From positions 1 through 43,391 of the forward strand of contig JAZGHU010000037.1 of NCBI GenBank assembly GCA_036481345.1: 43,391 bases of DNA. Reading direction: 5' to 3'. The notes beneath the pieces are model-generated. The model did not search any database. It saw only the letters and a program-made list of their open reading frames with translations, and was not told the DNA's origin. Below are positions 2,993-43,391 of this stretch, piece by piece (within the stretch, counting starts at the first letter, position 1; each line of letters begins with the position of its first letter). Source of the DNA: Candidatus Woesearchaeota archaeon (GTDB lineage: Archaea > Nanobdellota > Nanobdellia > Woesearchaeales > WJKL01). A program made the position numbers and the translations under genes.

Positions 2993-3015
2993 TTTATTCT
3001 TAAAAATCAGTAACA

Positions 3016-15955: not shown

Positions 15956-16210
15956 TTATTTTTTCTTTACTTTTTTACTTTTCCTTTTTTCAAGTTCAGT
16001 AAGTTTTGACAATTCTTTAAGTTCTGATTTATTCAAAGAAGTCAGTGCTTTTATCAGCTTTGACATTGTTGTCTCTAATTTTCTTGATCTTCTTGTAAGA
16101 TAAGTTATCAAAATAAGTACAACAGTAATCTCCAGAACAAGGATTATAACAATAACTCCAAGCAATAATATCAGTTCAATAAGTGGTATTTCAAATCCAA
16201 ACACATACAT
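15956..16210 (-). CDS. Small membrane protein (N-terminal TM helix, basic coiled C-terminus)
   Basis: 84 aa ORF. LILLLGVIVIILVLEITVVLILITY. GAGGTTGA Shine-Dalgarno-like sequence ~6 nt upstream of the ATG. Last gene of the minus-strand island. Confidence 0.55.
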   Translation of the reverse strand: MYVFGFEIPLIELILLLGVIVIILVLEITVVLILITYLTRRSRKLETTMSKLIKALTSLNKSELKELSKLTELEKRKSKKVKKK

Positions 16211-16272
16211 TTTTTATCAACCTCTTCTTTTTATTTTTAATCTTTTAATATGTATATAAAAGTTTCTTTTAT

Positions 16273-18936
16273 TTAACTGCATCTATCTGCAATCAATTGT
16301 TGCAGAGCATCTTGATTCTTTTCATCTAAGCTTCTAGTGTCAGTCAAATCAAAATCACTTGTTCTTTTTTCAACTAATTCTGTGTCGTCATACAAAGCAT
16401 ATTCTAATTCATAATCATTGACAAACTTATCAACATATTCATATTGATATGCAAACATTACTGTTTCTCCTGCTTTGATAAGATACGGACCATAAACTTC
16501 TTCTGTAGAGCTTACTTTTGATTTAAACATTGATCCAAAGAATCCTCTGAAGAAGGAAGAAGATGGAACATAATCTTCATCAGCTTCTAGATTCATGCTA
16601 AGTTCAATAGTATATTCTTTGTCTATATTATGTGTATTAGATATAAGGAAATAGATATCAAATAGGGATTCATTATCTCTTTTATCAATAACAACTGCAA
16701 AAGTCTCTCCATTCAGATCAACAGGGATTGCTCTGCTGTATAAAACATCATCTCCAGATGTAACTTTTAATCTTAATGTTTCAGCATCGTTTGTAGATAG
16801 TGGTCTTAAAAATCCAAGACCAATATCAACTACATCTCCTGGATTTATTGTATCTCTGATTATTGGATCTGAAACTGTCCATTGTGTTGCTCTTGGATCA
16901 TCTACAACACTACTTGCAGACCACCCTAATAAATCATCAAAACCCCAACCAAATAATCTACCTGTGTGAGCTACATTAGGTATTTCCTGCAATGCAGGAG
17001 CTACAATCTCAAATGTAACATTATGAAATACTTTATCTCCTGTATTTACAAAGCTAAAGCATAGTGCTTCGTCTTCAACAGTGACAGCAACATCTGCTTC
17101 CTGAACTTCTTCAATAATTACTTCTTCAGCTTGTACAACTTCTACAGAGCTTCCGCCTCCGCTTGTTACAATAACTGCAGGTGCTTCTAAAATAGTCATA
17201 ACACTACTATATTCATGATCAACATAATCAGAACCATTAAAAGACCCAGTTCTGCACATCCAAGTGCTGTTAACAACAGTTTCTGAACTAGTTAAAGTAT
17301 TGATATCAACTTCAACTCCTGCTGTTTGCCCAGCTAGACTAAATCCATCAATACTATATCTTAATAATCTATAATCTCCAGAAGAATTACTTCCAATAAT
17401 ATTTGGATCATCATTGCTGTCAAAATCTATATCAATTAAATCATCATCATTTGATCTATTATATTCAAAATGCCATTCTTGACTTCCATATGAATTATAT
17501 TTAACAGCTAATCCTTTCGTGGAATTTGATCCCACAACAATAATATCATCATTACTATCCATATTCATTCCATTAATACTCCCAGAAGTCATACTAAATG
17601 TCTTGTTCCACAATAAAGTTCCAGATGAATTTAATTTAAGAGTCCATATATCAGAATCTGAACTACCGCTAACAATCACATCATCATTACTATCATTCTC
17701 AACATTAGTTGCAGATTCTGTTCCTCCATTATCTAAAGTTAAATTCCAAAGATTAGTTCCAGATGAATTAAACTTCATAATAAAATAATCTCCACTCTTT
17801 GATCCAACAGCATAGTAATTATTATTGCTATCTGCAGCCACATCACTCAAAGTAGGAACCGGTCCGGTATCAAAATCATTTAATAAAGCACCAGCAGAAC
17901 TATATTTCCTTACAACATAATCACTATCAGTTCCAGATACAATAATATCATCATTACTATCAACAGCAACTGCACCATATCCTGAAGGAGGCCCGGCAGG
18001 AGCTACAACATTCCAAATTGTAGACCCATTATTTGGATAAAGTTTCCTAATCCAATATTTGTCATTTCCGCCGCCATCTTCTATAGCTCCAACTACAATT
18101 ACATTGCCGCTGCTATCAACAGCTACATCTCCTGCAGCATCACCAAATCCTGCAGGATCATAAGTAACATTCCAAAGATGATTTCCAGAAGAATCATATT
18201 TTCCAACCCAAGCATCATCTTGAGCAGCAGGATAACTTAAACTGCCCACAATAAATATATCATCATTACTACCTACAGCAATAGCACTTAAACTGACATT
18301 CTCCTGAACATCTGCCTCTAGATCCAAACTTCTAACCAAACTTCCATTCTCAAACCAATATCCATCATAAGTTAAACTTGCTCCATTTGTATCAGTTGCA
18401 TTTGCACTACAGATAAGATTATCAGTAGTTATATTAGCTCCAGTTGAAGATCTTAATTTAACATTAATTGTTTCAACAACAACTGAAACATCACTTACAA
18501 CAACAATATCTGTTAAATTTAATGTGTCATATCCTGTCTTATTGCAGCTTACATTCCAATCATATGTTCCAGATGTGTTAAAGCTTCTATTGTATTCATA
18601 CAATCCAGAGATTTCAGTCATATTATCCCATAAACTAGTATCATTAAACCAGATTGTACAATTAGCTCCTGTAAGTTCATCAGTTGAATTTGTATAATTA
18701 GCATAAAAATTAATTGTTTCATTTTCATACTTAATAACAGTATCTGTTGTATCCCAAATAGTCAAGTTTGTTTGATTTCCACTAGCATTTCCCCCGCCAT
18801 AAACAGGAGCTCCTGTTATGCCCCTATAATCATTCAAAATAAATATAGCTAAAACTAATACAATTGTCAATAATACTGCTGTTCCTGTTCCTAATTCAGT
18901 TTTTTTATTTCTCTTTAGCATCTCTCCACTCCTCAA
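16273..18936 (-). CDS. Large surface protein: N-terminal membrane anchor, sequon-rich Ig-like region, SBBP-type beta-propeller repeats, unknown C-terminal domain
   Basis: 887 aa. TM GTAVLLTIVLVLAIFIL. About 7 repeats of the pattern Y/F-x-S-S-G-x-x-x-W-N ... D-S-N-D-D-I-I-V-x-G (KYDSSGNHLWNV, VDSSGNVIVVG, FNSSGTNLWNL, LNSSGTLLWNK, YNSYGSQEWHF). Start overlaps the upstream gene by 32 nt. Confidence 0.8.
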   Translation of the reverse strand: MRSGEMLKRNKKTELGTGTAVLLTIVLVLAIFILNDYRGITGAPVYGGGNASGNQTNLTIWDTTDTVIKYENETINFYANYTNSTDELTGANCTIWFNDTSLWDNMTEISGLYEYNRSFNTSGTYDWNVSCNKTGYDTLNLTDIVVVSDVSVVVETINVKLRSSTGANITTDNLICSANATDTNGASLTYDGYWFENGSLVRSLDLEADVQENVSLSAIAVGSNDDIFIVGSLSYPAAQDDAWVGKYDSSGNHLWNVTYDPAGFGDAAGDVAVDSSGNVIVVGAIEDGGGNDKYWIRKLYPNNGSTIWNVVAPAGPPSGYGAVAVDSNDDIIVSGTDSDYVVRKYSSAGALLNDFDTGPVPTLSDVAADSNNNYYAVGSKSGDYFIMKFNSSGTNLWNLTLDNGGTESATNVENDSNDDVIVSGSSDSDIWTLKLNSSGTLLWNKTFSMTSGSINGMNMDSNDDIIVVGSNSTKGLAVKYNSYGSQEWHFEYNRSNDDDLIDIDFDSNDDPNIIGSNSSGDYRLLRYSIDGFSLAGQTAGVEVDINTLTSSETVVNSTWMCRTGSFNGSDYVDHEYSSVMTILEAPAVIVTSGGGSSVEVVQAEEVIIEEVQEADVAVTVEDEALCFSFVNTGDKVFHNVTFEIVAPALQEIPNVAHTGRLFGWGFDDLLGWSASSVVDDPRATQWTVSDPIIRDTINPGDVVDIGLGFLRPLSTNDAETLRLKVTSGDDVLYSRAIPVDLNGETFAVVIDKRDNESLFDIYFLISNTHNIDKEYTIELSMNLEADEDYVPSSSFFRGFFGSMFKSKVSSTEEVYGPYLIKAGETVMFAYQYEYVDKFVNDYELEYALYDDTELVEKRTSDFDLTDTRSLDEKNQDALQQLIADRCS

Positions 18937-21900
18937 ATTCTATTATAAGATAAGTTGCAATCAAACCTAATTGAAATACAAACATAAATTTAGATAAACT
19001 GTATACTATAACAAATAATAATAAACTTATAATACTTGTTGAAAACATCCATAATAATGCTCTTTTTTTATGAACTCCTTTTTCTTTAGAATAATGCTTT
19101 GCTAAAACAACAAAAAATACAAGACTAGCTAATAACATCCCATACCATAATAAGAATGGAATCTCGCCTATCTTTGCCTGCATTGGACTTTCTAATCTTA
19201 CTTTCACAGCCCCACAAGGTCTGCAAGGTCCTCCGCAATCAACACCTTCTTCTCCTCTATTTTTGACTCCATCAGAACAGGAAGGAACAACTAATTCTTT
19301 TATTTCTTCTTCAGGCTTTTGTAGAATAATATCTGGATAATCGCTTCCTCCACCTCCTCCGCCAGAAGAGCCTCCATTCGGACAAGCACCGCAATCAGCA
19401 GAACAACTTGTACAATCTTCCCATGAGTCGCATGATTGATTGTCAGAATCTGCATCAATACCACAGGAATCATTAATAGATGTTGTCTTGGAAGCAAATT
19501 TGGTGTCATATCCAGATAATACAGTTACATTGATTTCAGTTGAATTTGTTAATGCCTTTGCTTCCATTATGAAATTAACAATTATTGACTCATTAATTAA
19601 GAGTGTGGAAATATTATAAGGATTTGCTGAAGATATATCAAAATAAGTTGAATCATAGCCAAGCGTGACTATGATATCATTTGCATTTTCTGTTCCATTA
19701 TTGCTTATATTAACTGCAGCCACTATGGTCTGACCAATATAGATTTGGCTGATATTTATTGTTGAGACTTGTAAAACCTCAAATCCCCTGAGAATATCTA
19801 CCTGTGGATTTGTTGATTGCTGGTTTTGTGTTGGGTCTGCAGCATAAGAAAGTGAAGTGGCAACAGTAACATGCTTGTTTTGAATCGCATTATAGTTAGG
19901 AGTAAGGTTAAATGAGATAATTTCATTGCTATCTTCAGATATATTGACTACAATGTAATCAACACTGTTATTTGTAAAGGCAATTGATGGAGCCCAGGTT
20001 ATGTTCAAGACAACATTATCTGCTTTAGTTCCTAGATTGGTTACATTAGCATAAACAGTTATATTGCTTCCATTAAGAACGCCAACTGTATCACCAAATT
20101 CCTGTAAATTAGGGTAGCTTGGAGTAATAACATTATCCTGCAGCACTAGATAAGGTGTACTTGGCTCAAATCCTGATATATTGCAAGCACCAACTGGGTC
20201 ATTATCACATACTCCTGTAACCTTTGTTTGTTTATATCCTGTGCTAATAACAGTTATATTCCATACTTGATACTTGATATAAGAAAGGCACAATGCTGGT
20301 AACCATGGATTAGTGCAGTTTGTTACGTTTCCAATATTTTGAACCAAAGAGCTTGTTGTGTTTAAACTATTGCTTAATTTTAATGTTAAGTTTAGATTTT
20401 GTGCTGTTTCATTGCCTATGTTTGATATTGTAGTATTCAAAATAAACCATTCCCCCACATTAACAGTACTTATGGCGGGAATAGAAGTAAGAGAATAATC
20501 CATTCCAGGGGATGATAGTGTATAGATTTCAATCGTATGGTCATTTGTAACATTTTCTGAGAAATCAACTGTTTGCGTAGCTGTAACATTCCCTAAGAAC
20601 CCAGGGATAGTTGCATAAGCATCTAAATCATAATAACCAGTAACATTCGGGAAAGTAATTGTATATGGCCAATGCACTTTCAAAGATGAATTTGAAGAAA
20701 GCGAATAGTTTACATGACCATTGATTGTTAGATTAAATGAATCAATGCCATTTCCATTGTTTGCATTTGACGGCGGTGTTGTAGTAAGAATCAAGCTTAT
20801 GTTTCTTGTCTGATTTCCTTTGTTTGTTAATTTAATTATTTTATAATTATAGGAAGGGAGTAATGGTGTGTCATGGATAGAGGTAGGATAACGATTCTTT
20901 AATCCCTCCAATCCATTATAAGACAAAAAGTCTACATCAATTAAATCAGTGATTGGGGACAGTACGTTAATCACTTTCTGGTCTTTATTATCATTAGGGT
21001 CTGAATCCACAGAGCCAGCAGCTTCAATTGCTAATGTTCTAAATCCACTGTCATTTACACCAGGAGTCCAGTTAAATTCAATTTCAATTGTTGCAAATCC
21101 AGAAATATTAAAATACCTAATTTCTTTTTGTATATTATCCACAGTAAAGTTCGCAATCATGTTCTTTAACAGTCCAGAATCCTGATTAGTTATATTAGCT
21201 TTTACAGATATATTATCTCCTGCAGTAAATGTAGTTGTAGTAGGAGAAATCAGAACAAGTTCCATGTCACCAAAAGTGAAATCATCATCACCATCCAAAG
21301 GATCAGAGCCTCTTGTAACCTCCTGGCCGTCATTAACTCCTCCATCGTCAGTATCTGGATTCGTAGGACTTGTGTTGTGTGTATTTACCTCTGCTCCATC
21401 AGTTAGTCCATCATCATCAGAATCAGAATCATTTGGATTAGTGTTATTACCATATTCCTGGCCATCACTTAACCCATCACTGTCTGAATCTGAATTATTA
21501 GGGTCTGTTATATTTCCATCTATTCCTGGAACAACTTCTTCATAGTCTGTTAATCCATCACTGTCTGCATCGCAAGTAGTGCAATAACATAAAGATTTGT
21601 CATAAACACATAAACTTTCATCAACACAGCCATCTTGTATTCCATTGCAGTCAGCACATGCACACCCTTCTCCTGGATCACATGTTCCATTTGCTGAGCC
21701 AATACATCCTTGATCTGCTCCGTCTGTACTGCTGCAATTAGAAGAGCATGAACCATCAGTACATAATGTTGTTCCAGCAGCACAAGGAGGACAAGTTAAT
21801 CCTTCATCAATCAGATTGTCACAATCATTATCCTGGCCATCACAAACCTCTGTAGCTCCTGGATAAGTTGTATTATCTGCGTCATTACAATCATTATCAC

Positions 21901-23830: not shown

Positions 23831-24102
23831 TTCTTAACAAGCACCTCTTTTTTATCATATTTACATTCCCAGAATTGCAGAAATTCTTCTACTTCTTTTG
23901 CAAACTTTGAAGAAACAAGCATAACAGCCCTTCCCAGCTGTTCAATTTTATATTGTTTTACAATCCCACTTTTGCCATCTCTTCCCTTCATGGCATAGTA
24001 GAATCTTATCTTGTCTTTTTTCAGCAGATGTTGAGTAGAATAACTAAATAAAAACTTAGAATCATACTTCTTTTTGTCTATTACTACTTCTTTTTTAACC
24101 AT
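23827..24102 (-). CDS. Hypothetical 91-aa protein, translationally coupled to the 1641-aa gene
   Basis: ORF track. ATGA stop/start overlap at 23827-23830. No family recognised (KIRFYYAMKGRDGKSGIV...). Confidence 0.6.
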   Translation of the reverse strand: MVKKEVVIDKKKYDSKFLFSYSTQHLLKKDKIRFYYAMKGRDGKSGIVKQYKIEQLGRAVMLVSSKFAKEVEEFLQFWECKYDKKEVLVKK

Positions 24103-24124
24103 TATTTCAACATCAGGATAAAAA

Positions 24125-24144
24125 AGAAGTCTGTTGAACTTGTT
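24125..24144 (+). repeat. Copy 2 of the exact 20-nt repeat AGAAGTCTGTTGAACTTGTT
   Basis: Identical to 12610-12629. Lies 23-42 nt upstream of the minus-strand ATG at 24102, so it is transcribed there, if at all, as the reverse complement. Confidence 0.8.
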
Positions 24145-24306
24145 TCAACAATACCTCTTTTCCCACACTATATACCTTATGTTAAATAAGTTAACAAGTT
24201 TAGTATATAAATGTTTCTATGTTATATAGGTTAACAGAGAATAAGACGAGAGAAATTTTTCAAGAAGAAATCCTTATTCTATCATATAACCTTATTTTTA
24301 AGGTTT

Positions 24307-24417
24307 TTAAGGACTTACAACAGTTGCTGATGTTATAGACGGGCCAAAATTCAACAGGAGGTAAACTCCAAAAATAATAATGGCAATAACAACACCATAC
24401 AGTATTGTTTTTTTCAT
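24307..24417 (-). CDS. Possible 36-aa single-TM micro-protein
   Basis: Hand translation MKKTILYGVVIAIIIFGVYLLLNFGPSITSATVVSP-stop. Below the ORF-track cut-off. No further support. Confidence 0.3.
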   Translation of the reverse strand: MKKTILYGVVIAIIIFGVYLLLNFGPSITSATVVSP

Positions 24418-24490
24418 TTTTATTTAAGTATAAAACAACATACTTTACATCTTTATATTATTTTCTCTTCTGAAAGAGAAAAAAGTATAT

Positions 24491-27388: not shown

Positions 27389-27389
27389 T

Positions 27390-36300: not shown

Positions 36301-38195
36301 TTACTATCTTTAACTTCTGCTCCTAAATTTATCTCTTCAGCAACACCAAATTCAAATGCTTCAGTATGTTCTCCAACTAAGATTCTAAATCTCTTATTAT
36401 TCCAATTATTAACAATAAGAGTTACATTCTCTCCTGCAGTTGAAACATTTTGACTCAGTTCATAATCTACTCTTCCTTTTACAAATAGTGGAATAGATTC
36501 AACAGAATCATGATGGAATACAACAGTCAATGTATCTGTTATATTGTCATGCACAACAGAATCAATTACAGCATCATAGCTTGGATCTTCTTTTATCTTT
36601 GTATAGAATCCTTCAAGCACTGTTTCATTAAACTCTTCAGATAGATTATGCAATACATAATCAACTTTGTTAATCTCCAGCACTCCAGAATCTAATTCAA
36701 ATACAACTTTATAATCAGTATCACCCAATCCAGGAGGTAATATACATGTCTCTGAACAAACAGTTGAGAAATCAATCTCCTTAATCTCCACAGCTTTATC
36801 AGGATCAAACACAACAGTCTTTGAATTGATTATCAAAGTTGTTTCATCTTTAATCCTTACTCTAACTCTTCTCTTTGTATCATCAGAATAACTAAAGTGT
36901 GTTTGTATTACAACTTCCTGTTCTCCTACATCAAGTATTTTCTCCTCAGCTATCTCCAAAACATAAGGCTCTTCATATCCTTCAACATCTAATACTAGAT
37001 AACCAATACCAACAGACTGATTTTCCTTATTATCAATAGTAAGAACAACTTCATTTATTGTTCCCCATGATTTCTTCAACACATGATGGAACTCAACATC
37101 CTTAATCTTAACATGTTTATATTTCTCTAATGGTACAATATCTTCTATTAGCTCTTCTTCAACAACAGGTTCTTCTGTAATGTTGACTTCTTCAACAGGC
37201 TCTTCTATGATATCTACTTCCTCTGTAATATTAGTTTCTTCTTCTGTTACATTATCAACAACATCAGTGACATTAACTTCTTCAGTTGCATTGTCCACAG
37301 TAATGTTTGTTATAGTTATGTTATCAGTAATATTTACATCTTCAGTTAGGTTAATCTCAGTAGTGTTTATTTCTTCAGACACATTGGTCTCTTCAGTTAA
37401 ATTAATCTCTTCTGTGATGTTCACTTCTTCTGTAATGTTAACTTCTTCAGTAACATTAACTTCTTCAGTAATGTTTACTTCCTCTTCAATCTCTTCTGTG
37501 ATATTCTCTTCAACTACTTCTTCCACTTCCTCCCCAATAATTTCTTCCGCTTCAATTTCCTCTGTAACCTCAACTGCCCCTTCAACTTCCTCTTCAAGAA
37601 TTTCCTCTCCTTCCTGCTCAAGTTCTTCATCTTCTTCTACTTCCTCAACAACTTCTTCCTCATACACCTCCTCTTCCTGCTCTTCAACTTCAGTTATTTC
37701 ATAATCTGGCTCAGCTTCTTCAGGCATTGGTTCTTCTTCAATAAACAATCCAGTTATTCCAGACAAATCTTCCTTAGCAATTGTTTCTTCATCCAAGATT
37801 AAGAATCTGTTTCCATTATCATCTTCAAGATAAGCTTTAACTGTTCCATTGCCAACATAACTTCCACTCAATCTAAACGTTCTCAGATCAAATGCTTCCA
37901 AATCTTCATCTATATTAAATCCATATTCTGCATCTGCATCCATTGTCCAGCTAACATTTTTTTCATAAGCCAATAAACCCTCTTGAGATAAGAAGTATCC
38001 TGTAATTCCAGGAGCTAAGAAATATATTGCTGTCATCAATAACATGATTACAAAGAATACTATGAAAGCAGGAGATTTAATAAAACTCATTAAAGGCTTT
38101 TTCTTTCCACTAAATATTGGTTTAATGTTCAATCCATTGAATGCTGGAGCTGCCTTAAAGCTTCTATTTCCTTTGATTTTTATTTTATTTTGCAT
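27390..38195 (-). CDS. Giant surface protein (3601 aa): N-terminal anchor, acidic NxTEE stalk, DUF2341-like + LamG-like + MAM-like domains, ~13-15 Cys/Trp-rich tandem modules, many Ig/FN3/CARDB-like domains, Cys-knot, coiled coil, C-terminal TM anchor
   Basis: Uninterrupted 10.8-kb ORF. TM FIVFFVIMLLMTAIYFLAP. LDFDGSNDYI...FTLEAWIYP...WYHVVMTFD (LamG_3-like). MDITIGNAGTSTLTNFPAYINL...IWARIPSLP (DUF2341-like). ITFWYHMYGSALGTLYLEW...GDASLDNITV (MAM-like). C-terminal IGVSILAILVLSLLGAGAYYGY. Confidence 0.9.
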   Translation of the reverse strand: MQNKIKIKGNRSFKAAPAFNGLNIKPIFSGKKKPLMSFIKSPAFIVFFVIMLLMTAIYFLAPGITGYFLSQEGLLAYEKNVSWTMDADAEYGFNIDEDLEAFDLRTFRLSGSYVGNGTVKAYLEDDNGNRFLILDEETIAKEDLSGITGLFIEEEPMPEEAEPDYEITEVEEQEEEVYEEEVVEEVEEDEELEQEGEEILEEEVEGAVEVTEEIEAEEIIGEEVEEVVEENITEEIEEEVNITEEVNVTEEVNITEEVNITEEINLTEETNVSEEINTTEINLTEDVNITDNITITNITVDNATEEVNVTDVVDNVTEEETNITEEVDIIEEPVEEVNITEEPVVEEELIEDIVPLEKYKHVKIKDVEFHHVLKKSWGTINEVVLTIDNKENQSVGIGYLVLDVEGYEEPYVLEIAEEKILDVGEQEVVIQTHFSYSDDTKRRVRVRIKDETTLIINSKTVVFDPDKAVEIKEIDFSTVCSETCILPPGLGDTDYKVVFELDSGVLEINKVDYVLHNLSEEFNETVLEGFYTKIKEDPSYDAVIDSVVHDNITDTLTVVFHHDSVESIPLFVKGRVDYELSQNVSTAGENVTLIVNNWNNKRFRILVGEHTEAFEFGVAEEINLGAEVKDSKDTTIVAEIELIDSLTEEVKDKKVKGEKNKLVEEGEYNVKVKLEKHPVKSVEYKDMEIYEDFVDDIRIDDVPEEGTNYVEVYAIDPTNLNFTNATVTVTAKGTELYKCKDWNFSTQTCFGDWVLFKTGLVPGQDYTFTLTPEDPGFGEWANATFDRCMDITIGNAGTSTLTNFPAYINLTYDSDMQPDYVDLRFYNASCGDGGSLMDYEIESSDGSSAHIWARIPSLPSAGTVISVYYKNDTAVSSGENPAGVWDSNYKMVQHMDEDPSDTAPQMKDSTNNNNATSAGSMTSGDQEDGKVDGSLDFDGSNDYIYRDITTTPASFTLEAWIYPTAAGVVFAEQGQQTPSSGWHAVLMSFVGTNTINVGYYGGSHYTLGLGTTYSLNNWYHVVMTFDNADNTVRGYVDGVEQNSATQDKQWPGDWWLGIGANAASGPGYFTGNLDEIRVSDTPRSADWTNMTYQIVVNQGSLVTFGAEQIPNTAPTTPTNITCDGSNNCNITVDTSVDLNASGSTDADGDNITYVIEASLSSSTSASDGTDVSMAVEGGAGEAATYTINFDDESCANYNNDVLNWTSDNTNFWTCAATTPSGTTGPSGGSVGGTVTGGNNFIFTETSTGTECEGTDCSTESAFVLDKDSSDSSITFWYHMYGSALGTLYLEWNASGSWTSLWSQVGQDGDQTAETSDWKEVTIDLDAQSPANDYGLRFRHVHASGYQGDASLDNITVSAGGGGASNETNTTYTDYTDVSSDQNSINNITIKVEVDSYNPSASVDQGTNDPDLWLEVYNGSEFIEIGNFSLPATYTGTGLDTTNYNFSLSTTDASILTAWQTQANQDLRIMGRYMDHNGSVADEINYTNVFITISGSGWSNIGNHTETAAFTWNTTALAEQTGIDLRARAIDISGTNTYSSYFTKGSNLTISHGPPCNVSLTNTSWTAWINFTCAGSQMNQSRNLTQYDQNECGGANTTFFEYQLVGPNYQNTSWTSWLNISCLASDTMNQTRNLTQYDEYSCASNTTYIEYQNVSFCDYCTPSLTNTSWTSWYNTSACYVNDTIDQTRNLTQYDTNYCGEVSNTTYYEYQAAACDYCTPNMVNTSWSGWSNLTCSGDEMNQSRELTQYDDNSCGEIGNSTFYEYQLVGPTYLNTSWSGWLNISCLVSDTMNQTRNLTQYDDYSCAANTTYYEYQNVSFCDYCTPSLANTSWTSWLNISCLPSDTMNQTRNRTQYDQNYCGEVGNTTYIEYQNVTFCDYCTPSLTNTSWTSWYNTSACYVNDTIDQERNRTQYDSNSCGEVGNTTYYEYQAGSCDYCTPNMVNTSWSGWSNVSCSGDEMNQSRERTQYDNNSCGEIGNTTYYEYQLVGPSYLNTSWTSWLNITCLPSDTMNQTRNLTQYDDYSCASNSTFVEYQNTSFCDFCTPSLTNTSWTSWYNTSACYVNDTVDQERNLTQYDNNYCGEVGNTTYYEYQAAACDYCTPNMINTSWSSWSNLSCSGDEMNQSRERTQYDNNSCGEIGNTTYYEYQLVGPSYLNTSWTAWYNTSVCLVNDTTEQERNLTQYDLYSCAANSTYYEYQAVGCNYCSYSVVNTTWTGWQDSSACYLNDTKDQNRSRIEYDENYNTCYAVTGLGSDLWNSGNNNTYWEYQSSACDYCTPSWTAINTSCNTADNKTQWYNDTNDCYAITGLESDNNPPANQTFSCDYCTEDIQGPTNTSCNSSDRLNNYYVDNNYATCCVVTGLGSDCSIDNGSYDNQTLVCDYDGVPDMWIISPQATTYGVNVLINISSAGATDVWFNSGSGNETYTSSLYRNFSEGGHTIYAWANDSYGNVNSTSVSFTIDLTAPDSNIVSVDGDTSAPYWDTSNNSQTILAATTETGAQCRWGTSDVVYSSMSNDCSVSNGSINCNLGDVAQVASTTYYISCQDQYGNEQTTGQNIDVSFGVDWTVPTTYDDYDGYIKLPGHDVTIHEEDLPNATLITTYYCNDTTNTCSAETLIDDLDTVQFDIRGTNYLKYYSVDGANNTQDVRTTQVFINNLISIGSLSYVDYNGHSFDVSVSPTDADSSQNISCILYHRETGGYDNKAMTGTTTKTATISEADGYTPLDTIEMYIVCNDSMETVNTTPETHELGNNIPATPTLLSPSDNITTTGTTMLLWYTSSDLDNDTITYYVYGDTNADPTTLIYNGTATSYNWTTLTLTPNQLQNNYWKVKAGDSYQNSSFSEIRNIIVNDTRGVSVTYPADQDTDRSVNAVYTITITNEGTGADTYNLTLNNINSASTAVLNQTSVSLGVDENQNVTLTVTDDDTVGEYVVNITATSNSDTSVSTEINITTTVYGTLSAYSLLPNEAPPVIFYEGLDISFQGYVYDELSNAIGGATITFEPIYDTYSYTCTNTTDLGGGYYNCTMNTEGMQRPNYYDVRINASKTYYHSGTFTNSTMFLLADNQEAELTLYKLPTVQSLNDTTIVYNISNILTNLRGTSESTNLTDQDASQTWELGNIITETVTRSYLLTYTRGSDAYTVTLNKSNVSGYDAVYDNSLFAESNQPLIVIPENETLNQLTLIKNLIYQNQTTTNVTYQIVIEVVNSGEIDLEDIEVTDTDIELDTQINLTEGESWQTSAYIIIQKNPQTHTETFVKTRASASGDISYSNQPSITIPGYGGPFDVIITSIPSSVEQGNTITAEIELINQNPEIAEDRWLTTTIKDADGTVYDIDIRTVYVGRNSSLTTSVTLTAPSGTGTYYLSSEIVWPTATANATSSFEVTAPSDEGGSTGGSTGGTGAAEEVVCGDNICSSTETKERFQECIVDCGYDCDGDGIGESWLRCIIAIKQIPANLKKDVITLENKVIQLENKISELKEEGLATGEAEELLDELKESLEKAEENIAFGRFDYARNLIKNAYANAATIISVVGPTGATVISIGDIKIPWTGIGVSILAILVLSLLGAGAYYGYELTALARLRLRRVKLERMNQEIDDKIDEVYLKKGGT
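31070..33536 (-). repeat. In-frame tandem array of ~13-15 Cys/Trp-rich modules (~50-57 aa each) with a 3-module super-repeat
   Basis: Consensus CDYCTPSLTNTSWTSWYNTSACYVNDTIDQxRNLTQYDxNYCGEVGNTTYYEYQ. Modules with and without the CDYCTP prefix alternate. The last 3 modules are degenerate. Confidence 0.9.
37170..37510 (-). repeat. Imperfect 18-bp (6-aa) tandem repeats encoding N-[IVL]-T-E-E-[VI]
   Basis: Protein reads ENITEEIEEEVNITEEVNVTEEVNITEEVNITEEINLTEETNVSEEINTTEINLTEDVNITDNITITNITVDNATEEVNVTD... The + strand shows repeated gtaaYRttaacttcttca units. Confidence 0.8.
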
Positions 38196-38721
38196 TCTTT
38201 TTCATTGCACGATTATAGACAGTCCATATTGTCCTTTCATTTCTTTGCAGTAATTCACCAATTTTATGATAAGAAAGTTTGAAATTTTCTTTGAGATAAA
38301 CAACAACAGCTTCAAGCAGACTTAATTTTGTCCTCAAAGCAGAAACAGGGATGTTATATTCAGTTTCAGCAGGAGGAATAACATCAGAATATTTTTTCAT
38401 TGCATTTTTATGAGCCTGCCACACTGTCTTTCTATCCCTTCCAAGCATCTTTGCAATCTTTGTAAAATCAATATCCAAATTTTCTTTAAGATATTTAACA
38501 GTTGTTTCCAAGGGACTAAGTTTTTTAATAAAAACAGTGCAAGGGATCATAATATCTTCTTGGATAAAGTTCAAGACATCTGTTGTAGAAATATGATACT
38601 TTTTTTTCAGTCGTTTTAATAAGATCTTAAAAACAGCAAAATCTTCATCTTGATAAAGTTTAGAACTATCAAATTCTCTAGATTTCTGTGTAAAACCCGC
38701 TCTAATGCCTCTCTTTTTCAT
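38185..38721 (-). CDS. Tandem-duplicated helix-turn-helix (sigma-70 region 4 / LuxR-like) DNA-binding protein
   Basis: 178 aa with two similar halves: LSPLETTVKYLKENLDIDFTKIAKMLGRDRKTVWQAHKNAMKK and LSLLEAVVVYLKENFKLSYHKIGELLQRNERTIWTVYNRAMKK. Stop overlaps the start of the 3601-aa gene by 11 nt. Confidence 0.7.
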   Translation of the reverse strand: MKKRGIRAGFTQKSREFDSSKLYQDEDFAVFKILLKRLKKKYHISTTDVLNFIQEDIMIPCTVFIKKLSPLETTVKYLKENLDIDFTKIAKMLGRDRKTVWQAHKNAMKKYSDVIPPAETEYNIPVSALRTKLSLLEAVVVYLKENFKLSYHKIGELLQRNERTIWTVYNRAMKKNAK

Positions 38722-38734
38722 TACTTTTACTGTA

Positions 38735-39029
38735 ATTTAAGTATAATTATCTATATATGTAAGTAATGACTATATAAATATTATTGTTTTTTAGTACATA
38801 TGTAAGATATATGCCTATTAATGTAAGTAATAATAACCTTAAATGTAAGTAACAAATATACAAAATAAGATACTCTCTCTTTATATGTAAGTATTTAGAA
38901 CTTTAATGTCAGTATTGATATCCATATATTGTATCATATTATGTAAGTATTTAGCTCTCTATATGTAAGTATATACTTCCCTATACTTCCATATATGTAC
39001 AAAAGCATAGAAATATTTATATATAAGTA
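38735..39029 (+). repeat. Phased array of ~10 direct copies of ATGTAAGTA in the divergent intergenic region (iteron/operator-like)
   Basis: Exact copies start at 38757, 38821, 38843, 38885, 38941, 38963. Variants start at 38735 (ATTTAAGTA), 38800 (ATGTAAGAT), 38906 (ATGTCAGTA), 39021 (ATATAAGTA). Spacings are 22, 43, 21, 22, 42, 21, 35, 22, 58 nt. All copies are on the same strand. Confidence 0.8.
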
Positions 39030-39045
39030 TACACATTTGTATACT
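39026..39045. promoter_or_regulatory. Palindromic operator-like site AGTATACA-catt-TGTATACT immediately upstream of the RHH ORF
   Basis: Perfect 8-bp arms (39026-33 / 39038-45), ending 2 nt before ATG 39048. Overlaps TATA-like ATATTTATATATAAG (39013-39027). Confidence 0.5.
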
Positions 39046-39047
39046 CA

Positions 39048-39203
39048 ATGAGTAAAAATGAGCAGAGTGATAAGCAAAAAGTAACTTTAAGCATAGATTC
39101 TAAAACTTATAAACAATTTCAAGACCATTGCGAAGAAAACGCAATAATGCTTTCTAAAAAAATAGAATTATTCATGAAAAAAGAATTAGAGGAGACTAAG
39201 TGA
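39048..39203 (+). CDS. 51-aa ribbon-helix-helix (CopG/Arc/MetJ-like) protein, not in the ORF track
   Basis: Hand translation MSKNEQSDKQKVTLSIDSKTYKQFQDHCEENAIMLSKKIELFMKKELEETK. Pattern of a beta-strand (KVTLSID) plus two short helices. Size typical of RHH repressors. Confidence 0.55.
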   Translation: MSKNEQSDKQKVTLSIDSKTYKQFQDHCEENAIMLSKKIELFMKKELEETK

Positions 39204-39234
39204 TACTTACGAACAAAGTGAGGAAGGTTTGGAA

Positions 39235-42200
39235 ATGAAATTTCCAAAAAAGAAAAAAGGCGTTTGGATTAAGACAGCAATCATCTTAGCTCTTGCTTTA
39301 TTAGCCTCAAGTTTAGTTTCTGCTGAGACTGCAAACCTCACATCAGCAATTTATAGCGGAGGAGATAAACTTTCAGATGTTTCAGCAAAAGATGATTCTT
39401 ATTTCTTAGCAGACATGAAAGATGTTGCTAAGGGATTCTACTTAAATTTCTCATCAGATCTAACTAATGGTTCAACATTGAATGTCTTTGCTAAACAAAC
39501 TACAGGAATCACAATAGGAATATATGCACAATCAGACACATCAGGAACAACTCCTCTTGGAACATTTTCAATAACTTCTGGAACAGGAGATTGGTATAAT
39601 ACAACTTTAGATATTTCAACTCCAACAAATGGAATCTGGTTAGGAGAAGGAACTGGCTCTGGACAGAATCCTAAAGATGAATTTGATTTCTTTAGTGCCA
39701 CAATCCCTTCAGCATGTACTGCAAACTTAACAAATACCTCTTGGTCATCATGGACAAATATAACTTGCTTAGCAAACGACACAATGAATCAATCTAGAAA
39801 CTTAACTCAATATGATGCTAATGTTTGTGGAGGAGCTAATACAACATTTACAGAATATAGAGCAACAGAATTCTGTGATTATTGTACTCCTTCATTAACA
39901 AACACATCTTGGACATCATGGTATAATACAAGCAGCTGTTATGCAAATGACACTATAGACCAAGAGAGGAATCTTACTGAATATGATGGCAATTATTGTG
40001 GAGAAGTTAGCAATAGCACTTACTTTGAATATCAGACAGCTGCATGTGATTATTGCACACCCAACTTAATTAATACGTCTACAGCCTGGACTAATATTTC
40101 CTGCCTTGTATCAGATTTGATGAATCAAACAAGAAATACAACTCAGTATGACAATAATTACTGCGGAGAAATAGCAAACCAGACTTTTGTAGAATATCAA
40201 GCAACAGAATTCTGTGATTATTGCACTCCAAGTTTAATAAATACCTCTTGGACAGAGTGGTATAATTTAACAGGGTGTCAAGCTAATGATACAGTTCTGC
40301 AGGAAAGAAACTTAACTCAGTATGATTCAAATAGTTGTGGAGAAGTTGCTAATACAACATTTACAGAACAGCAATCTGTAGCATGTGATTATTGCACCCC
40401 CTCATTAACAAATACATCATGGAATTCATGGTTAAATATTAGTTGCTTGTCAGATGATACTATGAACCAAAGTAGAAATCTGACTCAATATGATACAAAT
40501 AGTTGTGGAGAAATTGCTAATCAAACATTCATAGAATACAGGAATACAGAAGCATGTGATTATTGCACACCTTCATTAACAAACACATCCTGGAGCAGTT
40601 GGAATAATATATCCTGTCTATCAGACAATACTATGAACCAGTCTAGAAACTTAACACAATATGATTCAAATAGTTGTGGAGAGATTGCTAATCAAACTTT
40701 TACAGAGTATCAAAATATAGAAGCATGTGATTATTGTACTCCTAATTTATTGAATACATCATGGACAGCGTGGTATAATTTAACAGGATGTCAAGCAAAT
40801 GATACTGTTCTGCAGGAAAGAAACTTGACTCAATACGATAGTAATGTTTGTGGAGAATTTGCTAATCAGACATTCACTGAGCAGCAATCTGCAGCTTGCA
40901 TTTATCAAGTGAATATTAATGAAACAGTTGAAGATGCTTCAAGCAATCCAATAAATACAACAATAATCATAATTGATGAATCTGATAATTCAACAGTATA
41001 TAATCAAACAGCCAATTCCCACAACTTAAATGTAGATCATAATAAAGAATACACAATTAGAATTGTCCCTCAAAACAATAAAATAAAAGAAATTGAATTC
41101 ACTAATGTAAATATAACAGAACCATTAAATCAGATTATAGACATAGATAATCCAGCAGATAACCAAGGCTATATTGATCTTTATGCAATCAATCCATTGA
41201 TTAACTTAAGTCCAGGACAAACATTTACAGTTACAGTTACAGCATCTGCAACTTCAAATGTTCTTTACAAATGTGTTGATTGGAATTTCACATCAAGAAC
41301 ATGTGAAGGAACTTGGATATTGTCTAAAATAATCAACCCAGGACAAGATTACATTATAACTTTAAACAGCACAGACCCAGGATTTGGAGAAGATAATATT
41401 ACTGCGAACCTTACTTCAGCAATACATGTTGGATCTGATGTACTTAGCTTCTTAATTTCAAAAGATGACAATTATTATTCAGCAGATGTGAAAGATGCTA
41501 GTAAGAAACTTTATCTTAACTTCACTCATAATATAACTAATCAAAGTATATTGAAAATTTATGCTAAACAAGTTAATGGAATTACAGTAGGGATATATGC
41601 ACAATCAGATACATTAGGAACAACTCCTTTAGGAAATTTTACAGTAACTTCTGGAACAGGAGATTGGTATAATATAACCTTAGATTTATCCACAGAGACA
41701 AATGCAATCTGGTTTGGAGAAGGAACAGGTTCAGGAACAGATCCAAAAGAAGAATTTGATTATGTCTATGTAGAGATATTCATCGCAAATAGCCTGCCTA
41801 ACTCAACAACCCCAATAATAACACCTGCAACAGCATATACCAATAACAACTTAAATTGTACATTTACAGTAACAGATGAGGATAATGACAGTTTAAGTGT
41901 TAATTACACTTGGTATAATGGCTCAACTCTAGTAATAACAGGAACAATGAATGTAACAAATGGAACTCTGACTTCAATAAGTTTAGGAAGTGCAAATACT
42001 TCAAAAGGAGAAACATGGAATTGCTCAATTATTCCATTTGATGGTATAGCTTATGGAATAGAAAAAAGCATAACAAAAACAATTCAAAACTCTTTACCAA
42101 CATCCCCTATAATAGATTTACTTCCAAACAATCCAAATGCAGATCAAGATTTAGTAGCATCAATAACTTCATCAAGTTCAGATTTAGATAATGATACAAT

Positions 42201-43391
42201 TACTTATTCATATGAATGGTATAAAAATAATATATTACAACCAGGATTAACAACAAATACAATATCACATGTATTAACTACAGCAGGAGAAATATGGAAA
42301 GCAGTTGTAACTCCTAATGATGGAGAATCAGATGGCGCAACAGGAGAAGATAATGAAACAATAGTAGGAGTTCCACCTCAAACATCTAATATTAAATTAA
42401 TGTCTCCAATCAATCATTATATAATAACCTCTTCAACAACTGTTACATTCAACTATAATGTATCAAATAATGTTACAAATTGTTCATTGGTAATAAATGG
42501 AACAGTGGATCAAACAAATACTAACATAACTCCAAATACAACAGAAACCTTCACAAAAACTTTAGCAAATGGAGATTATAATTGGTCAGTAGAATGTACC
42601 AATCCAGATAATTCAACAAACAGCTCAATAACCTGGGACTTCACATTAGATTATACTGCTCCTGTAAAGAAAAGTGGTGGAGGAGGAGGAAGCTCTTCTG
42701 CTCCAGTTATAGTAGAAGAATGTTTAGAAAGCTGGACATGCACATCTTGGTCTGATTGTGCTAATGATCAACAGACCAGATTATGCTTTGACTTTAATGA
42801 ATGCGGAACAGAAACATTAAAGCCAGAAGAGATTAGATCTTGTGAAGCTAATCAGAATAATGGAGATGGGCTGGCTGAAAATGAAACAAAAGGTTCTGGA
42901 ATACCTTCTATAACAGGAGAAGCTATCAAGGTTCTGCCATATAAGGGACCTAATCCATATTACTTACTGCCAACAATCTTGTTATTGATAATATTCATAA
43001 CACTGACTGCTCTCAAGAAATCACATCTATCTAAAACTAAAAAGAAAGTGATAACTACACTTCATATAACTTTGGCTAGTCTTATATTGATATTATTTGT
43101 ATCATCTTTTATCAAGAACCTGCCAATAGGAGCACACATAGCAGAGATAACTGAAACAGCAAATGTTCCTATGAAGACAATAATAATAGTTATAGTAGGG
43201 GTGGCTTTTGCTATGGCTGCTTTATCAGCAACTCTTCTTTTTGTAGAAAAGAATAAAATCATGAATATTCTGAAGAAACGAAATAGTGGAAAGAGAAAAA
43301 GGAAAGAGATAAAAAAGATGGAAGCAAAAAAAGTAAAACCAAAGAAAATCAAGCCGAGATTAGAACACCATAAAATAAAGATGGATATGAT
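39235..43391 (+). CDS. Giant surface protein, >1385 aa, 3' end outside the window; paralogous to the 3601-aa protein
   Basis: Frame 1 is open from ATG 39235 (GAGG at 39220-39223) to the window end, checked by hand translation; absent from the ORF track because no stop is reached. Signal peptide MKFPKKKKGVWIKTAIILALALLASSLVSA. Seven CDYCTP...W..W modules. Duplicated ~125-aa N-domain. GGGGGSSS linker, Cys-knot ECLESWTCTSWSDCANDQQTRLC, then TM helices. Confidence 0.88.
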   Translation, partial: MKFPKKKKGVWIKTAIILALALLASSLVSAETANLTSAIYSGGDKLSDVSAKDDSYFLADMKDVAKGFYLNFSSDLTNGSTLNVFAKQTTGITIGIYAQSDTSGTTPLGTFSITSGTGDWYNTTLDISTPTNGIWLGEGTGSGQNPKDEFDFFSATIPSACTANLTNTSWSSWTNITCLANDTMNQSRNLTQYDANVCGGANTTFTEYRATEFCDYCTPSLTNTSWTSWYNTSSCYANDTIDQERNLTEYDGNYCGEVSNSTYFEYQTAACDYCTPNLINTSTAWTNISCLVSDLMNQTRNTTQYDNNYCGEIANQTFVEYQATEFCDYCTPSLINTSWTEWYNLTGCQANDTVLQERNLTQYDSNSCGEVANTTFTEQQSVACDYCTPSLTNTSWNSWLNISCLSDDTMNQSRNLTQYDTNSCGEIANQTFIEYRNTEACDYCTPSLTNTSWSSWNNISCLSDNTMNQSRNLTQYDSNSCGEIANQTFTEYQNIEACDYCTPNLLNTSWTAWYNLTGCQANDTVLQERNLTQYDSNVCGEFANQTFTEQQSAACIYQVNINETVEDASSNPINTTIIIIDESDNSTVYNQTANSHNLNVDHNKEYTIRIVPQNNKIKEIEFTNVNITEPLNQIIDIDNPADNQGYIDLYAINPLINLSPGQTFTVTVTASATSNVLYKCVDWNFTSRTCEGTWILSKIINPGQDYIITLNSTDPGFGEDNITANLTSAIHVGSDVLSFLISKDDNYYSADVKDASKKLYLNFTHNITNQSILKIYAKQVNGITVGIYAQSDTLGTTPLGNFTVTSGTGDWYNITLDLSTETNAIWFGEGTGSGTDPKEEFDYVYVEIFIANSLPNSTTPIITPATAYTNNNLNCTFTVTDEDNDSLSVNYTWYNGSTLVITGTMNVTNGTLTSISLGSANTSKGETWNCSIIPFDGIAYGIEKSITKTIQNSLPTSPIIDLLPNNPNADQDLVASITSSSSDLDNDTITYSYEWYKNNILQPGLTTNTISHVLTTAGEIWKAVVTPNDGESDGATGEDNETIVGVPPQTSNIKLMSPINHYIITSSTTVTFNYNVSNNVTNCSLVINGTVDQTNTNITPNTTETFTKTLANGDYNWSVECTNPDNSTNSSITWDFTLDYTAPVKKSGGGGGSSSAPVIVEECLESWTCTSWSDCANDQQTRLCFDFNECGTETLKPEEIRSCEANQNNGDGLAENETKGSGIPSITGEAIKVLPYKGPNPYYLLPTILLLIIFITLTALKKSHLSKTKKKVITTLHITLASLILILFVSSFIKNLPIGAHIAEITETANVPMKTIIIVIVGVAFAMAALSATLLFVEKNKIMNILKKRNSGKRKRKEIKKMEAKKVKPKKIKPRLEHHKIKMDM
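39715..40895 (+). repeat. Seven in-frame tandem Cys/Trp-rich modules (~56 aa, ~168 bp), same family as 31070-33536 but on the opposite strand
   Basis: For example CDYCTPSLTNTSWTSWYNTSSCYANDTIDQERNLTEYDGNYCGEVSNSTYFEYQTAA. Shares exact DNA runs with the minus-strand array, such as aattattgtggagaagttagcaa. Confidence 0.9.

Follow-up and report, generated by a model that had tools for sequence, protein, structure and literature searches.

We have analysed a 43,391-nucleotide stretch of DNA, referred to here as the window, from Candidatus Woesearchaeota archaeon (assembly GCA_036481345.1, contig JAZGHU010000037.1), an AT-rich (33% GC) Woesearchaeota-type DPANN archaeon. From position 15,956 to its end the window is dominated by four genes for giant proteins and by the small genes that precede them. 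We consider it probable that this region is a cell-surface gene island of three autonomous cassettes, in which each leader protein would autoregulate its own cassette and the giants would serve as adhesins. In this study, we show the gene structure of the island, the extracellular glycoprotein character and the domain content of the giants, the coupling of leader genes to giant genes, and three conserved promoter-proximal motifs.

An earlier note on this DNA had read the region as an island of membrane-anchored giants with dedicated regulators. All nine open reading frames (ORFs) that it described, with their coordinates, overlaps and gaps, were reproduced from the ORF list and the translations. 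Its 32-nt overlap for the 887-aa protein holds for the TTG start at 18936, while the ATG at 18921 used in the NCBI annotation (882 aa) gives 17 nt. That the host is AT-rich and that four large proteins occupy about half of the window agrees with our measurements (33% GC; 22.5 kb in the four large genes, or 52% of the window). The suggestion that the small DNA-binding-type genes are dedicated partners of the giants is borne out by a coupling and by operator motifs that recur across many Woesearchaeales genomes.

Organization of the island into three cassettes

As predicted from sequence, each cassette starts with a small cytoplasmic leader, followed by close or overlapping genes for large, heavily N-glycosylated surface proteins. 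An N-terminal hydrophobic segment would insert the giants into the membrane, and C-terminal transmembrane (TM) anchors would fix most of them there. The genes and promoter elements of the cassettes are as follows.

Cassette A
38771-38778, minus strand: TATA box TTTATATA of the g178-g3601-g965 unit, read from the sequence
38735-39029, plus strand: candidate operator array between the divergent promoters, with exact and near copies of ATGTAAGTA
38185-38721, minus strand: g178, 178-aa tandem helix-turn-helix (HTH) protein, the leader; 11-nt overlap with g3601
27390-38195, minus strand: g3601, 3601-aa predicted surface glycoprotein, from TM, domain and sequon analysis
24491-27388, minus strand: g965, 965-aa coiled-coil protein, starting 1 nt after the g3601 stop

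Cassette B
39016-39044, plus strand: promoter and candidate operator, TTTATATA at 39016-39023 followed by GTATAC-N6-GTATAC at 39027-39044
39048-39203, plus strand: g51, 51-aa leader resembling ribbon-helix-helix (RHH) proteins, by a strand-helix-helix pattern read from the sequence
39235-43391, plus strand: gEnd, more than 1385 aa, cut by the window end; ATG at 39235 behind the Shine-Dalgarno sequence GAGGAAGG

Cassette C
24180-24236, minus strand: promoter, with TGTTAACCTATATAACA at 24236-24220, AGAAACA resembling a transcription factor B recognition element (BRE) and TTTATATA at 24211-24204, and TGTTAACTTATTTAACA at 24196-24180
23827-24102, minus strand: g91, 91-aa basic protein, the leader; ATGA overlap with g1641
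18905-23830, minus strand: g1641, 1641-aa predicted surface protein; TM segment then PTITG, and three C-terminal TM segments
16273-18936, minus strand: g887, 887-aa protein, predicted to be secreted or N-terminally anchored; TTG start, 882 aa from the ATG at 18921
15956-16210, minus strand: g84, 84-aa protein, the last gene; N-terminal TM segment and basic coiled-coil cytoplasmic tail

The earlier note had taken the minus-strand genes for one co-regulated unit with a single long transcript. We reject a single minus-strand operon, because the cassettes have separate BRE/TATA promoters, each of the three has its own conserved candidate operator motif, and a T-run follows the g965 stop, after which comes the 388-nt gap. 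An unannotated 36-aa ORF in this gap (24307-24417, minus strand), MKKTILYGVVIAIIIFGVYLLLNFGPSITSATVVSP, carries a TM segment followed by GPSITS/SIT, which is similar to the TM-ITG motif of the giants described below, and could encode a small membrane protein or be a gene remnant.

The tandem HTH leader and its repeat array

The leader of cassette A is predicted to belong to the sigma-70 region 4/LuxR-type HTH superfamily. Pfam matches to HTH_23 (31.7 bits, cut-off 24.6) and Sigma70_r4_2 (28.6 bits, cut-off 25.7) are both above threshold, and alignment of g178 reveals two repeats with the pattern IP...F...LS.LE..VKYLKE...L.Y..IA.LL.R..RTIW..Y..A.KK. In the AlphaFold2 model, with a predicted local distance difference test (pLDDT) score of 82 and above 90 for residues 58-177, these form two three-helix HTH units. 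A Foldseek search gave no match at E <= 1e-3; its top matches were bacterial sigma factors, PhyR, sigma/anti-sigma complexes, isolated sigma region 4 and the LuxR-type domain of RcsB. Superposition on sigma region 4 (1rio_H) gave a target-normalised TM-score of 0.66 with a root-mean-square deviation of 1.2 Å over 48 columns, and identity to RcsB is 43% over 46 columns. We rejected g178 as a sigma factor, since no Sigma70_r2 match was found, NCBIfam sigma models score at best 36 bits (cut-offs 271-323), and the RNA polymerase of the host is archaeal.

Homologues of g178 number 84 in the database, and all the named ones are from Candidatus Woesearchaeota. A scan of one genome per GTDB species yielded 296 loci, the best 80 of which all come from metagenome-assembled genomes of Woesearchaeota, Nanoarchaeota, Nanoarchaeia or Pacearchaeota; third-party annotation bins titled 'uncultured Methanosarcinales' among the g178 loci were taken as mislabelled.

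The divergent promoters of cassettes A and B share a 326-nt spacer. Six exact copies of ATGTAAGTA on the plus strand, which read TACTTACAT in the sense of g178, lie in this spacer (at 38757, 38821, 38843, 38885, 38941 and 38963) and none elsewhere in the 43 kb, where 0.66 would be expected; none of 100 shuffles reached six. About four near copies are found at 38735, 38800, 38906 and 39021. The copies have one orientation and are spaced mostly by 21-22 or 42-43 nt, so that they share one helix face. Near 38974-38997 there are two inverted ATACTTCC variants. One copy falls between the TATA box and the start codon of g178, and the order TATA box, TTACTTACAT, TATACTTAAAT and ATG is also found in L008 and L011 (related contigs are given here by L numbers).

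The array is conserved in relatives. It occurs upstream of HTH orthologues in L003, L007, L008, L011, L012 and L018, and the motif is kept though the orthologous proteins are 57-74% identical and the flanking DNA has diverged. Across 80 genome loci, the density of ACTTACA is 3.65 per kb within 450 nt 5' of the HTH gene and 0.10 per kb elsewhere, a 36-fold difference, with 124 copies in the sense orientation versus 3 in the antisense. We suggest that g178 would bind the phased TACTTACAT array. The copy between TATA box and start codon suggests repression, and the upstream copies, on one helix face, would suit cooperative binding by a protein with two HTH units.

The last gene of cassette A encodes a cytoplasmic coiled-coil protein with neither TM segment nor signal peptide. 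As one continuous coiled coil, g965 would by our estimate extend over about 140 nm. The N-terminal sequence of g965, MGLFD...LDLLEQNVNKKLDLL, is conserved, and orthologues directly follow the orthologous giant in L011 (58% identity at the N-terminus) and in L094 (992 aa, 41% identity over 783 columns). We found no Pfam match and no PDB sequence match for g965. A PspA/Vipp1-like reading of the MGLFD start was considered; no HMM (hidden Markov model) supports it, and we do not claim it.

The leaders of cassettes B and C

In cassette B, the GTATAC palindrome lies between the TATA box and the ATG of g51 and stops 3 nt short of this ATG. With the elements so near the start codon, the transcript is probably leaderless. 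The palindrome is conserved in L007 and L008, as is the TATA box. The identification of g51 as an RHH protein in the earlier note agrees with its strand-helix-helix pattern, while the sole Pfam match, to DUF6364, is below threshold (17.6 bits, cut-off 27.3); no PDB sequence match was found. A palindromic candidate operator at the leader's own promoter is as expected of RHH (CopG/Arc/MetJ) regulators, and g51 would bind it over the transcription start. Orthologues of g51 (64-78% identity) lie directly 5' of giants in L007, L008 and L011, and one is also present in L018.

In cassette C, the TGTTAAC..TTAACA sites (TGTTAACCTATATAACA and TGTTAACTTATTTAACA) flank a consensus BRE/TATA in the 388-nt gap. 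GTTAAC is 16-fold enriched upstream of 75 metagenome homologues of g91, where TGTTAA is found in 51 and TTAACA in 52, with the same bipartite position around the TATA box. The g91 family comprises 170 homologues of about 90 aa with 57-77% identity, 24 invariant columns and the core HLLKKDKIRFYYALKGRDGKSG; g91 has no Pfam family match. The AlphaFold2 model of g91 (pLDDT 91.8) has a beta-alpha-beta-beta-alpha-beta, ferredoxin-like fold. A PDB fold search with it gave no match at E <= 1e-3, and UreE-C, PII-like proteins, Cas2 and VapD appeared at E >= 0.05. We suggest that g91, or a factor acting with it, would bind the sites around the TATA box.

Coupling of leader genes to membrane-protein genes, and a TM-ITG signature

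The coupling of a leader gene to the gene of a membrane or surface protein recurs in genomes and metagenomes. Among genome loci with enough sequence, the stop of the HTH gene overlaps or abuts the next start in 68 of 76, usually by 4, 8, 11, 14 or 17 nt. The proteins encoded downstream are 187 to more than 3300 aa long; a TM segment lies in the first 200 residues of 67 of the 76, and a TM-x-ITG motif, for example (K/R)P.ITG(F/L/Y) right after the helix, is present in 47. Homologues of g91 are likewise coupled, usually by an ATGA overlap, to genes of proteins with a TM segment or signal peptide in 54 of 67 metagenome loci, with products of up to more than 2600 aa.

Three window proteins carry the TM-ITG motif, namely g3601 (PGITGY, and SGITGL after its N-domain), g1641 (PTITGQ) and g887 (RGITGA). 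Because the background control for TM-ITG was contaminated by paralogues of the same family, we claim no enrichment factor, and we found no link between the signature and any described sorting signal. A homologue search with residues 1-160 of g3601 returned nothing, and an exhaustive HMMER search found the family of its N-domain (residues 58-152): 65 representative relatives among 1.84 billion cluster representatives, nearly always N-terminal, in proteins of 116-5659 aa.

The partners of the two leader families differ in what precedes the membrane. The median start of the TM segment is residue 83 in the HTH partners and residue 4 in the g91 partners (Mann-Whitney p = 8e-10). In 37 HTH partners, a conserved helical cytoplasmic domain of about 95 aa, with the pattern ..L.R.I..C..K......GLI....Y..KL...L..R.P.QWI.YYD..I..Y, precedes the TM-P.ITG site irrespective of ectodomain size (187 to more than 2495 aa). 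This layout resembles that of an anti-sigma factor.

L013-L092, downstream of tandem HTH genes, for example L022 10452-10850 and L040 1370-1770: proteins with the domain of about 95 aa

Localization and modules of the giants

Sequon density and anchors mark the four giants as probable extracellular N-glycoproteins. They contain 3.6-5.6 N-X-S/T sequons per 100 aa (g3601 4.67, g1641 4.33, gEnd 5.56), 2.3-2.7 times the expectation from their composition, versus 0-1.0 in ten cytoplasmic proteins of the window, and Lys+Arg make up only 3.5-5.7% of the giants. An N-terminal hydrophobic segment is present in all four, and C-terminal TM anchors are found in three (one in g3601, about three each in g1641 and gEnd, none in g887), just as the earlier note had it. 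By sequence, the giants have the features of archaeal S-layer glycoproteins, namely an N-terminal signal or anchor, a C-terminal anchor and dense sequons. No S-layer domain was matched in whole-protein or segment scans of the window proteins, and the C-termini of the giants show TM segments and basic tails with no tripartite sorting signal of the archaeosortase PGF/PEF type.

The description of the giants as extracellular, membrane-anchored mosaics with adhesion-type modules stands, with a shorter list of modules than first proposed. Whole-protein Pfam scans were nearly empty, and the LamG, DUF2341 and MAM domains of g3601 emerged only in segment-wise scans. These three and the Cys-rich metal-binding MopE motifs of g1641 are above threshold. 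The labels TSP3, CARDB and beta-propeller are plausible, with scores below the cut-offs (in bits, TSP3_bac 19.5 versus 25, CARDB 20.5 versus 22.7, delta_60_rpt 38.9 versus 76.5 and Lepto_SBBP 37.7 versus 400), and NEW3 was not found in the Pfam scans. Contrary to the claim that each large protein carries such modules, Pfam domains above threshold occur in two of the four. No serine-protease, restriction-endonuclease or lytic-transglycosylase domain was found in whole-protein or segment scans.

The largest giant, g3601, begins with about 40 cytoplasmic residues, a TM segment followed by PGITG, the N-domain, an acidic sequon-rich spacer and an Ig-like region. DUF2341 (residues ~819-884; 26.4 bits, cut-off 23.4), Laminin_G_3 (938-1086; 74.4 bits, E 1.4e-20, above threshold) and MAM (1188-1357; 46.7 bits, cut-off 26.4, E 4e-12) follow. 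Next come 13 Cys-rich repeats at residues 1555-2260, with degenerate copies to about 2380, and the protein ends in an Ig/CARDB-like region, a Cys knot, an extracellular coiled-coil stalk of about 90 residues, a TM segment at about 3540-3565 and a cytoplasmic tail of about 35 aa. In cassette C, the N-domain of g1641 is related to that of g3601; the protein also has an acidic Cys/Asp stretch and matches to TSP3 and CARDB that stay below threshold, and its Cys content is 4.3%. The Cu-binding_MopE match of g1641 (E 6e-34; 116.3 bits, which is above the gathering score) covers 5-6 motifs in residues ~350-650, five by the whole-protein scan and 2 + 4 by segment scans. A TM segment followed by RGITG opens g887, which has a sub-threshold beta-propeller of the SBBP/delta-60 type and no C-terminal anchor; over its last 250 aa it shares 37% identity with the C-terminus of the 1766-aa L094 giant.

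The giant of cassette B has a Sec-type signal peptide, a duplicated module of about 130 aa, Cys-rich repeats, an Ig-like region, an SITG motif, three TM segments and a basic tail, with no Pfam domain above threshold. Its orthologues in L007, L008 and L011 have 1387-2097 aa; since that of L007 has 1387 aa, gEnd should be nearly complete. The Cys-rich repeat of 50-57 aa, NTSW..W...C...MNQ.RN.TQYD...CG...N.T..EYQ...CDYCTP, is common to g3601 and gEnd at about 60% amino acid identity, and Pfam gave only spurious CxxC-type matches to it (Fer2_2, zf-U1). The 13 clear copies of g3601 (31056-33533, minus strand) and the ~6-7 of gEnd (39730-40860, plus strand) are in inverted orientation with 72-83% nucleotide identity. 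We considered an inversion or phase-variation switch between them and rejected it because the arms are only 72-83% identical. The giants are mosaics, and modules have been exchanged both between paralogues and between genomes.

The layout recurs in relatives

Leader-giant coupling, candidate operators and gene order recur in dozens of Woesearchaeales contigs. The divergent arrangement, in which a 51-54-aa g51 orthologue with its giant faces a tandem HTH gene with its giant, is found in L007, L008-L010 and L011, and L018 has orthologues of both leader genes (g51 and g178) about 1.2 kb apart. The triplet of HTH gene, giant and coiled coil, for which the earlier note had proposed a comparison of synteny, is conserved in L011 and L094. 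In L011, an ORF that starts 3 nt after the giant begins with MGLFNMKEDIEQEQKKLDMLEQN and corresponds to the g965 N-terminus. The whole minus-strand order is repeated in L094, which has the C-terminus of a giant (67% identity to g3601), the 992-aa coiled coil, a 92-aa protein 73% identical to g91, the 1766-aa giant carrying TM-ITG, and an orthologue of g84 (53%) in the same position.

Several genomes have at least two tandem HTH paralogues per locus, each 5' of its own large gene (L003 10886-11485; L007 15305-15832; L012/P0037), and some of these paralogues have their own TACTTACA-type arrays. The cassette is thus a repeated building block.

Downstream of the g51-side giant, relatives carry a conserved set of genes that encode a protein of about 205 aa with TM-ITG and the N-domain, a ParA/CbiA-type ATPase (268-270 aa), a 137-143-aa protein and a SpoIIM-family membrane protein. 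This gene set probably lies just past window position 43391, and may be part of the same system.

L007 3538-5389; L008 729-2670; L011 1481-3380; L003 18129-18935: downstream gene set on the g51 side

A model for the island

We argue that each leader would bind its own operator and autoregulate its own cassette, which would give tight control of genes that are costly to express. The giants would act as adhesins for another cell or a polymer surface, presenting their LamG, MAM, DUF2341, MopE, propeller and Cys-repeat modules at a distance of tens of nanometres from the membrane, and module shuffling could diversify their specificity. Inside the cell, g965 and g84 may form a coiled-coil layer that engages the short tails of the giants.

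Several points weigh against this model. Since g91 has no recognised DNA-binding fold, the TGTTAAC..TTAACA operator may belong to another factor. Motif counts are uneven upstream of distant HTH homologues, with no copy at 29 of the 78 loci that have upstream sequence. The RHH label of g51 consists of a sequence pattern and a sub-threshold Pfam match. Few recognisable orthologues of g887, g1641 and g84 exist outside L094, and the role given to the coiled coil draws on gene adjacency only. Adhesion-type domains also occur in enzymes and in envelope proteins.

Alternative explanations

Could the 3601-aa ORF be a chimera of two joined contigs? In the assembly GCA_044343285.1, the window DNA is split between two contigs (29183 and 14225 bp) whose sole overlap is 17 nt inside g3601, near repeated modules, so the giant ORF could have arisen in this way.

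29167-29183, inside g3601: 17-nt contig overlap (GCA_044343285.1), bridged by colinear single-contig homologues

We find this very improbable. The reading frame is preserved across the join, which falls at residues ~3004-3010 of g3601, and two homologues span it colinearly, namely the single-contig 3143-aa orthologue of L011 (54% identity to residues 1554-3600) and the giant of L094, from a third assembly (67% identity to residues 2433-3598). In addition, the repeats are 2.4 kb distant from the junction, and a single contig of 43391 bp is on record for the same proteins. A mobile element, provirus or polymorphic-toxin locus is, if anything, even harder to credit. The island is indeed a mosaic, and mobile elements and toxin-antitoxin systems often encode small proteins with HTH, RHH and Cas2/VapD-like folds, but HMM scans of the window proteins detected no integrase, transposase, capsid or toxin domain, and IMG/VR has no relative of g178 or g91; on these grounds we rejected an origin from a virus or mobile element. 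Moreover, the GC content (31-38% throughout the window) matches that of the flanking housekeeping genes, the C-termini of the giants are membrane anchors rather than toxin domains, and the inverted repeats have diverged to the extent given above.

The other two readings concern the function of the giants and their leaders. In the first, a transmembrane signalling pair would operate like the extracytoplasmic function (ECF) sigma/anti-sigma pair SigI/RsgI: the HTH protein would be tethered by the cytoplasmic N-terminus of its partner, be freed by ligand or cell engagement or by cleavage near TM-ITG, and then act on the TACTTACAT arrays. Several observations suit it: at 68 of 76 loci the HTH gene overlaps the gene of a single-pass membrane protein with its N-terminus inside, the cytoplasmic N-region of the HTH partners is long (median residue 83 versus 4), 37 of them share the helical domain before TM-P.ITG, and sigma factors and sigma/anti-sigma complexes rank first among the fold and HMM matches of g178. 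In the window itself, no more than about 40 residues precede the TM segment of g3601, and the W..YY domain is missing from this protein, which makes tethering a weaker idea here; no anti-sigma HMM matched in the g3601 scans, and the 80-90-aa cytoplasmic domain of ECF anti-sigma factors is absent. Archaea have no sigma factors, g178 has no sigma-2 domain, and overlapping genes are usual for ordinary autoregulators as well. We therefore hold both the tethering and the subsequent release onto the arrays to be rather unlikely, and regard with the same reserve the wider proposal that Woesearchaeales couple surface contact to expression through an archaeal counterpart of sigma/anti-sigma, with the g91 family as a second, unrelated class of leader. 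The main conventional rival, to which we give slightly less credence again, is that the giants are ordinary envelope constituents, S-layer or canopy proteins similar to tetrabrachion, and that the leaders tune envelope synthesis. The N-terminal signals or anchors, the C-terminal TM anchors, the extracellular stalk of g3601 and the very high sequon density would all fit, as would the conservation of the loci beside housekeeping genes and, in relatives, beside ParA-like and SpoIIM genes. Against it, no S-layer HMM matched, and proteins of 1.4-3.6 thousand residues with LamG, MAM and MopE are atypical of lattice formers. Size, number of paralogues and module shuffling also vary widely among close relatives, which fits interaction proteins better than a lattice.

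Comparison with known systems

An island of giant adhesin-like proteins is an established kind of feature in DPANN archaea. Large extracellular proteins are known in Woese- and Pacearchaeota (PMC8204110), and further examples are the SPEARE proteins of Ca. Nanohaloarchaeum antarcticus (PMC6642349) and the LamG-containing giants of Ca. Nanohalobium constans (PMC7443923). The window giants resemble these DPANN proteins in being very large, secreted or anchored and multi-domain, in taking a large share of coding capacity, in their assumed contact with a host and in their LamG-type modules. The SPEARE proteins reportedly carry serine-protease and restriction-endonuclease domains within a giant protein. 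These domains, like the lytic-transglycosylase domain, were not detected in the window giants, which are therefore no members of the SPEARE type. They differ further in leader cassettes, operator arrays, the TM-ITG module and the coiled-coil partner, none of which we met in those descriptions. Neither the cassette logic nor the TACTTACAT arrays appear to be described in the literature that we found, and the same goes for the bipartite GTTAAC operators, the g91 family, the TM-ITG module and the conserved coiled-coil partner.

Like an ECF sigma/anti-sigma pair, cassette A has a region-4-type gene overlapping the gene of a single-pass, N-terminus-in protein at a locus that looks autoregulated, and the HTH partners of relatives (g3601 excepted) share the layout of a cytoplasmic helical domain of about 95 aa with a variable ectodomain. 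The anti-sigma factors of SigI/RsgI systems carry carbohydrate-binding ectodomains. The differences are that the promoter is of the archaeal type, used by TATA-binding protein and transcription factor B, that g178 consists of two region-4-like HTH units without sigma-2, that its candidate sites are phased direct repeats and not -35/-10 elements, and that ectodomains here exceed 3000 aa. Archaeal sigma-r4/LuxR-type HTH regulators (Tfx, DUF134) have been surveyed (PMC5413776). In HTH class, g178 is similar to them, with weak matches to DUF134 and PRK04217; it differs in its tandem duplication of the HTH, in a family limited to Woesearchaeales-type genomes and in its fixed position upstream of membrane or surface genes.

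In bacteria, consecutive genes for giant surface proteins, Giant1-5, are described for Apilactobacillus kunkeei (PMC12863079). The likeness lies in adjacent genes for repeat-rich, shuffled extracellular proteins of thousands of residues that fill a notable fraction of a small genome; the window proteins differ in being archaeal and TM-anchored instead of cell-wall sorted, and in having their own leader regulator per unit. Among archaea, tetrabrachion of Staphylothermus marinus is a stalked S-layer protein. It shares with g3601 a C-terminal TM anchor after an extracellular coiled-coil stalk and heavy potential for N-glycosylation, but the stalk of g3601 has only about 90 residues, no lattice domain was recognised, and many variable paralogues exist.

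Genes adjoining the island

Both ends of the window are contig ends. Compared with the two contigs of GCA_044343285.1 (L001 and L002), the window differs at five positions (4 + 1 mismatches), and the exact L11 protein is not on record. Its first 15.9 kb hold archaeal housekeeping genes: ilvD, split RpoB''/B' and RpoA'/A'', S7, aroA, Spt5 and L11. The presence of aroA and ilvD suggests that the organism is less reduced than many DPANN.

Two genes adjoining the island are unusually long. Spt5 (14251-15165, plus strand) has 304 aa with 27% Asp+Glu, and L11 (15168-15950, plus strand) has 260 aa, of which the Pfam domains cover residues up to 137; its C-terminal extension contains a 24-nt tandem repeat (15900-15947). 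The aroA gene for 5-enolpyruvylshikimate-3-phosphate (EPSP) synthase (12680-13921, plus strand) stands between the S12/S7 and the SecE-like/Spt5/L11 genes. In archaeal operons, EF-2 and EF-1alpha usually occupy the place after S12/S7. Rfam found two tRNA genes, at 2866-2992 and 3358-3479 (plus strand; 127 and 122 nt; 60.4 and 50.2 bits), long enough for introns; ARAGORN found no tRNA in the window, these two included. Between ilvD and the tRNA genes, a 475-aa ORF (1314-2741, plus strand) matches PF00928, the adaptor-complex medium-subunit (mu-homology) domain, below threshold (E 2e-6, 27.7 bits, cut-off 31.6). Such a match is odd for an archaeon and may be spurious.

Significance

A still central question about DPANN archaea is by what means they recognise other cells and stay attached to them, and we know of no cultured representative of Woesearchaeota. 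The locus offers testable parts: a regulator family found throughout the lineage, with the candidate operator TACTTACAT in 21-22-nt phase, a strongly conserved leader family of about 90 aa with a bipartite candidate operator around the TATA box, a shared N-terminal TM-ITG export or processing signature, and a conserved cytoplasmic coiled-coil partner. These could be used to find surface or attachment regulons in metagenomes, to predict co-expressed giants and to design binding or heterologous-expression experiments. If surface contact were coupled to expression, the island would encode an attachment organ that senses contact rather than a passive coat, and if leaders were tethered at the membrane, this would be a new mode of archaeal transmembrane signalling.

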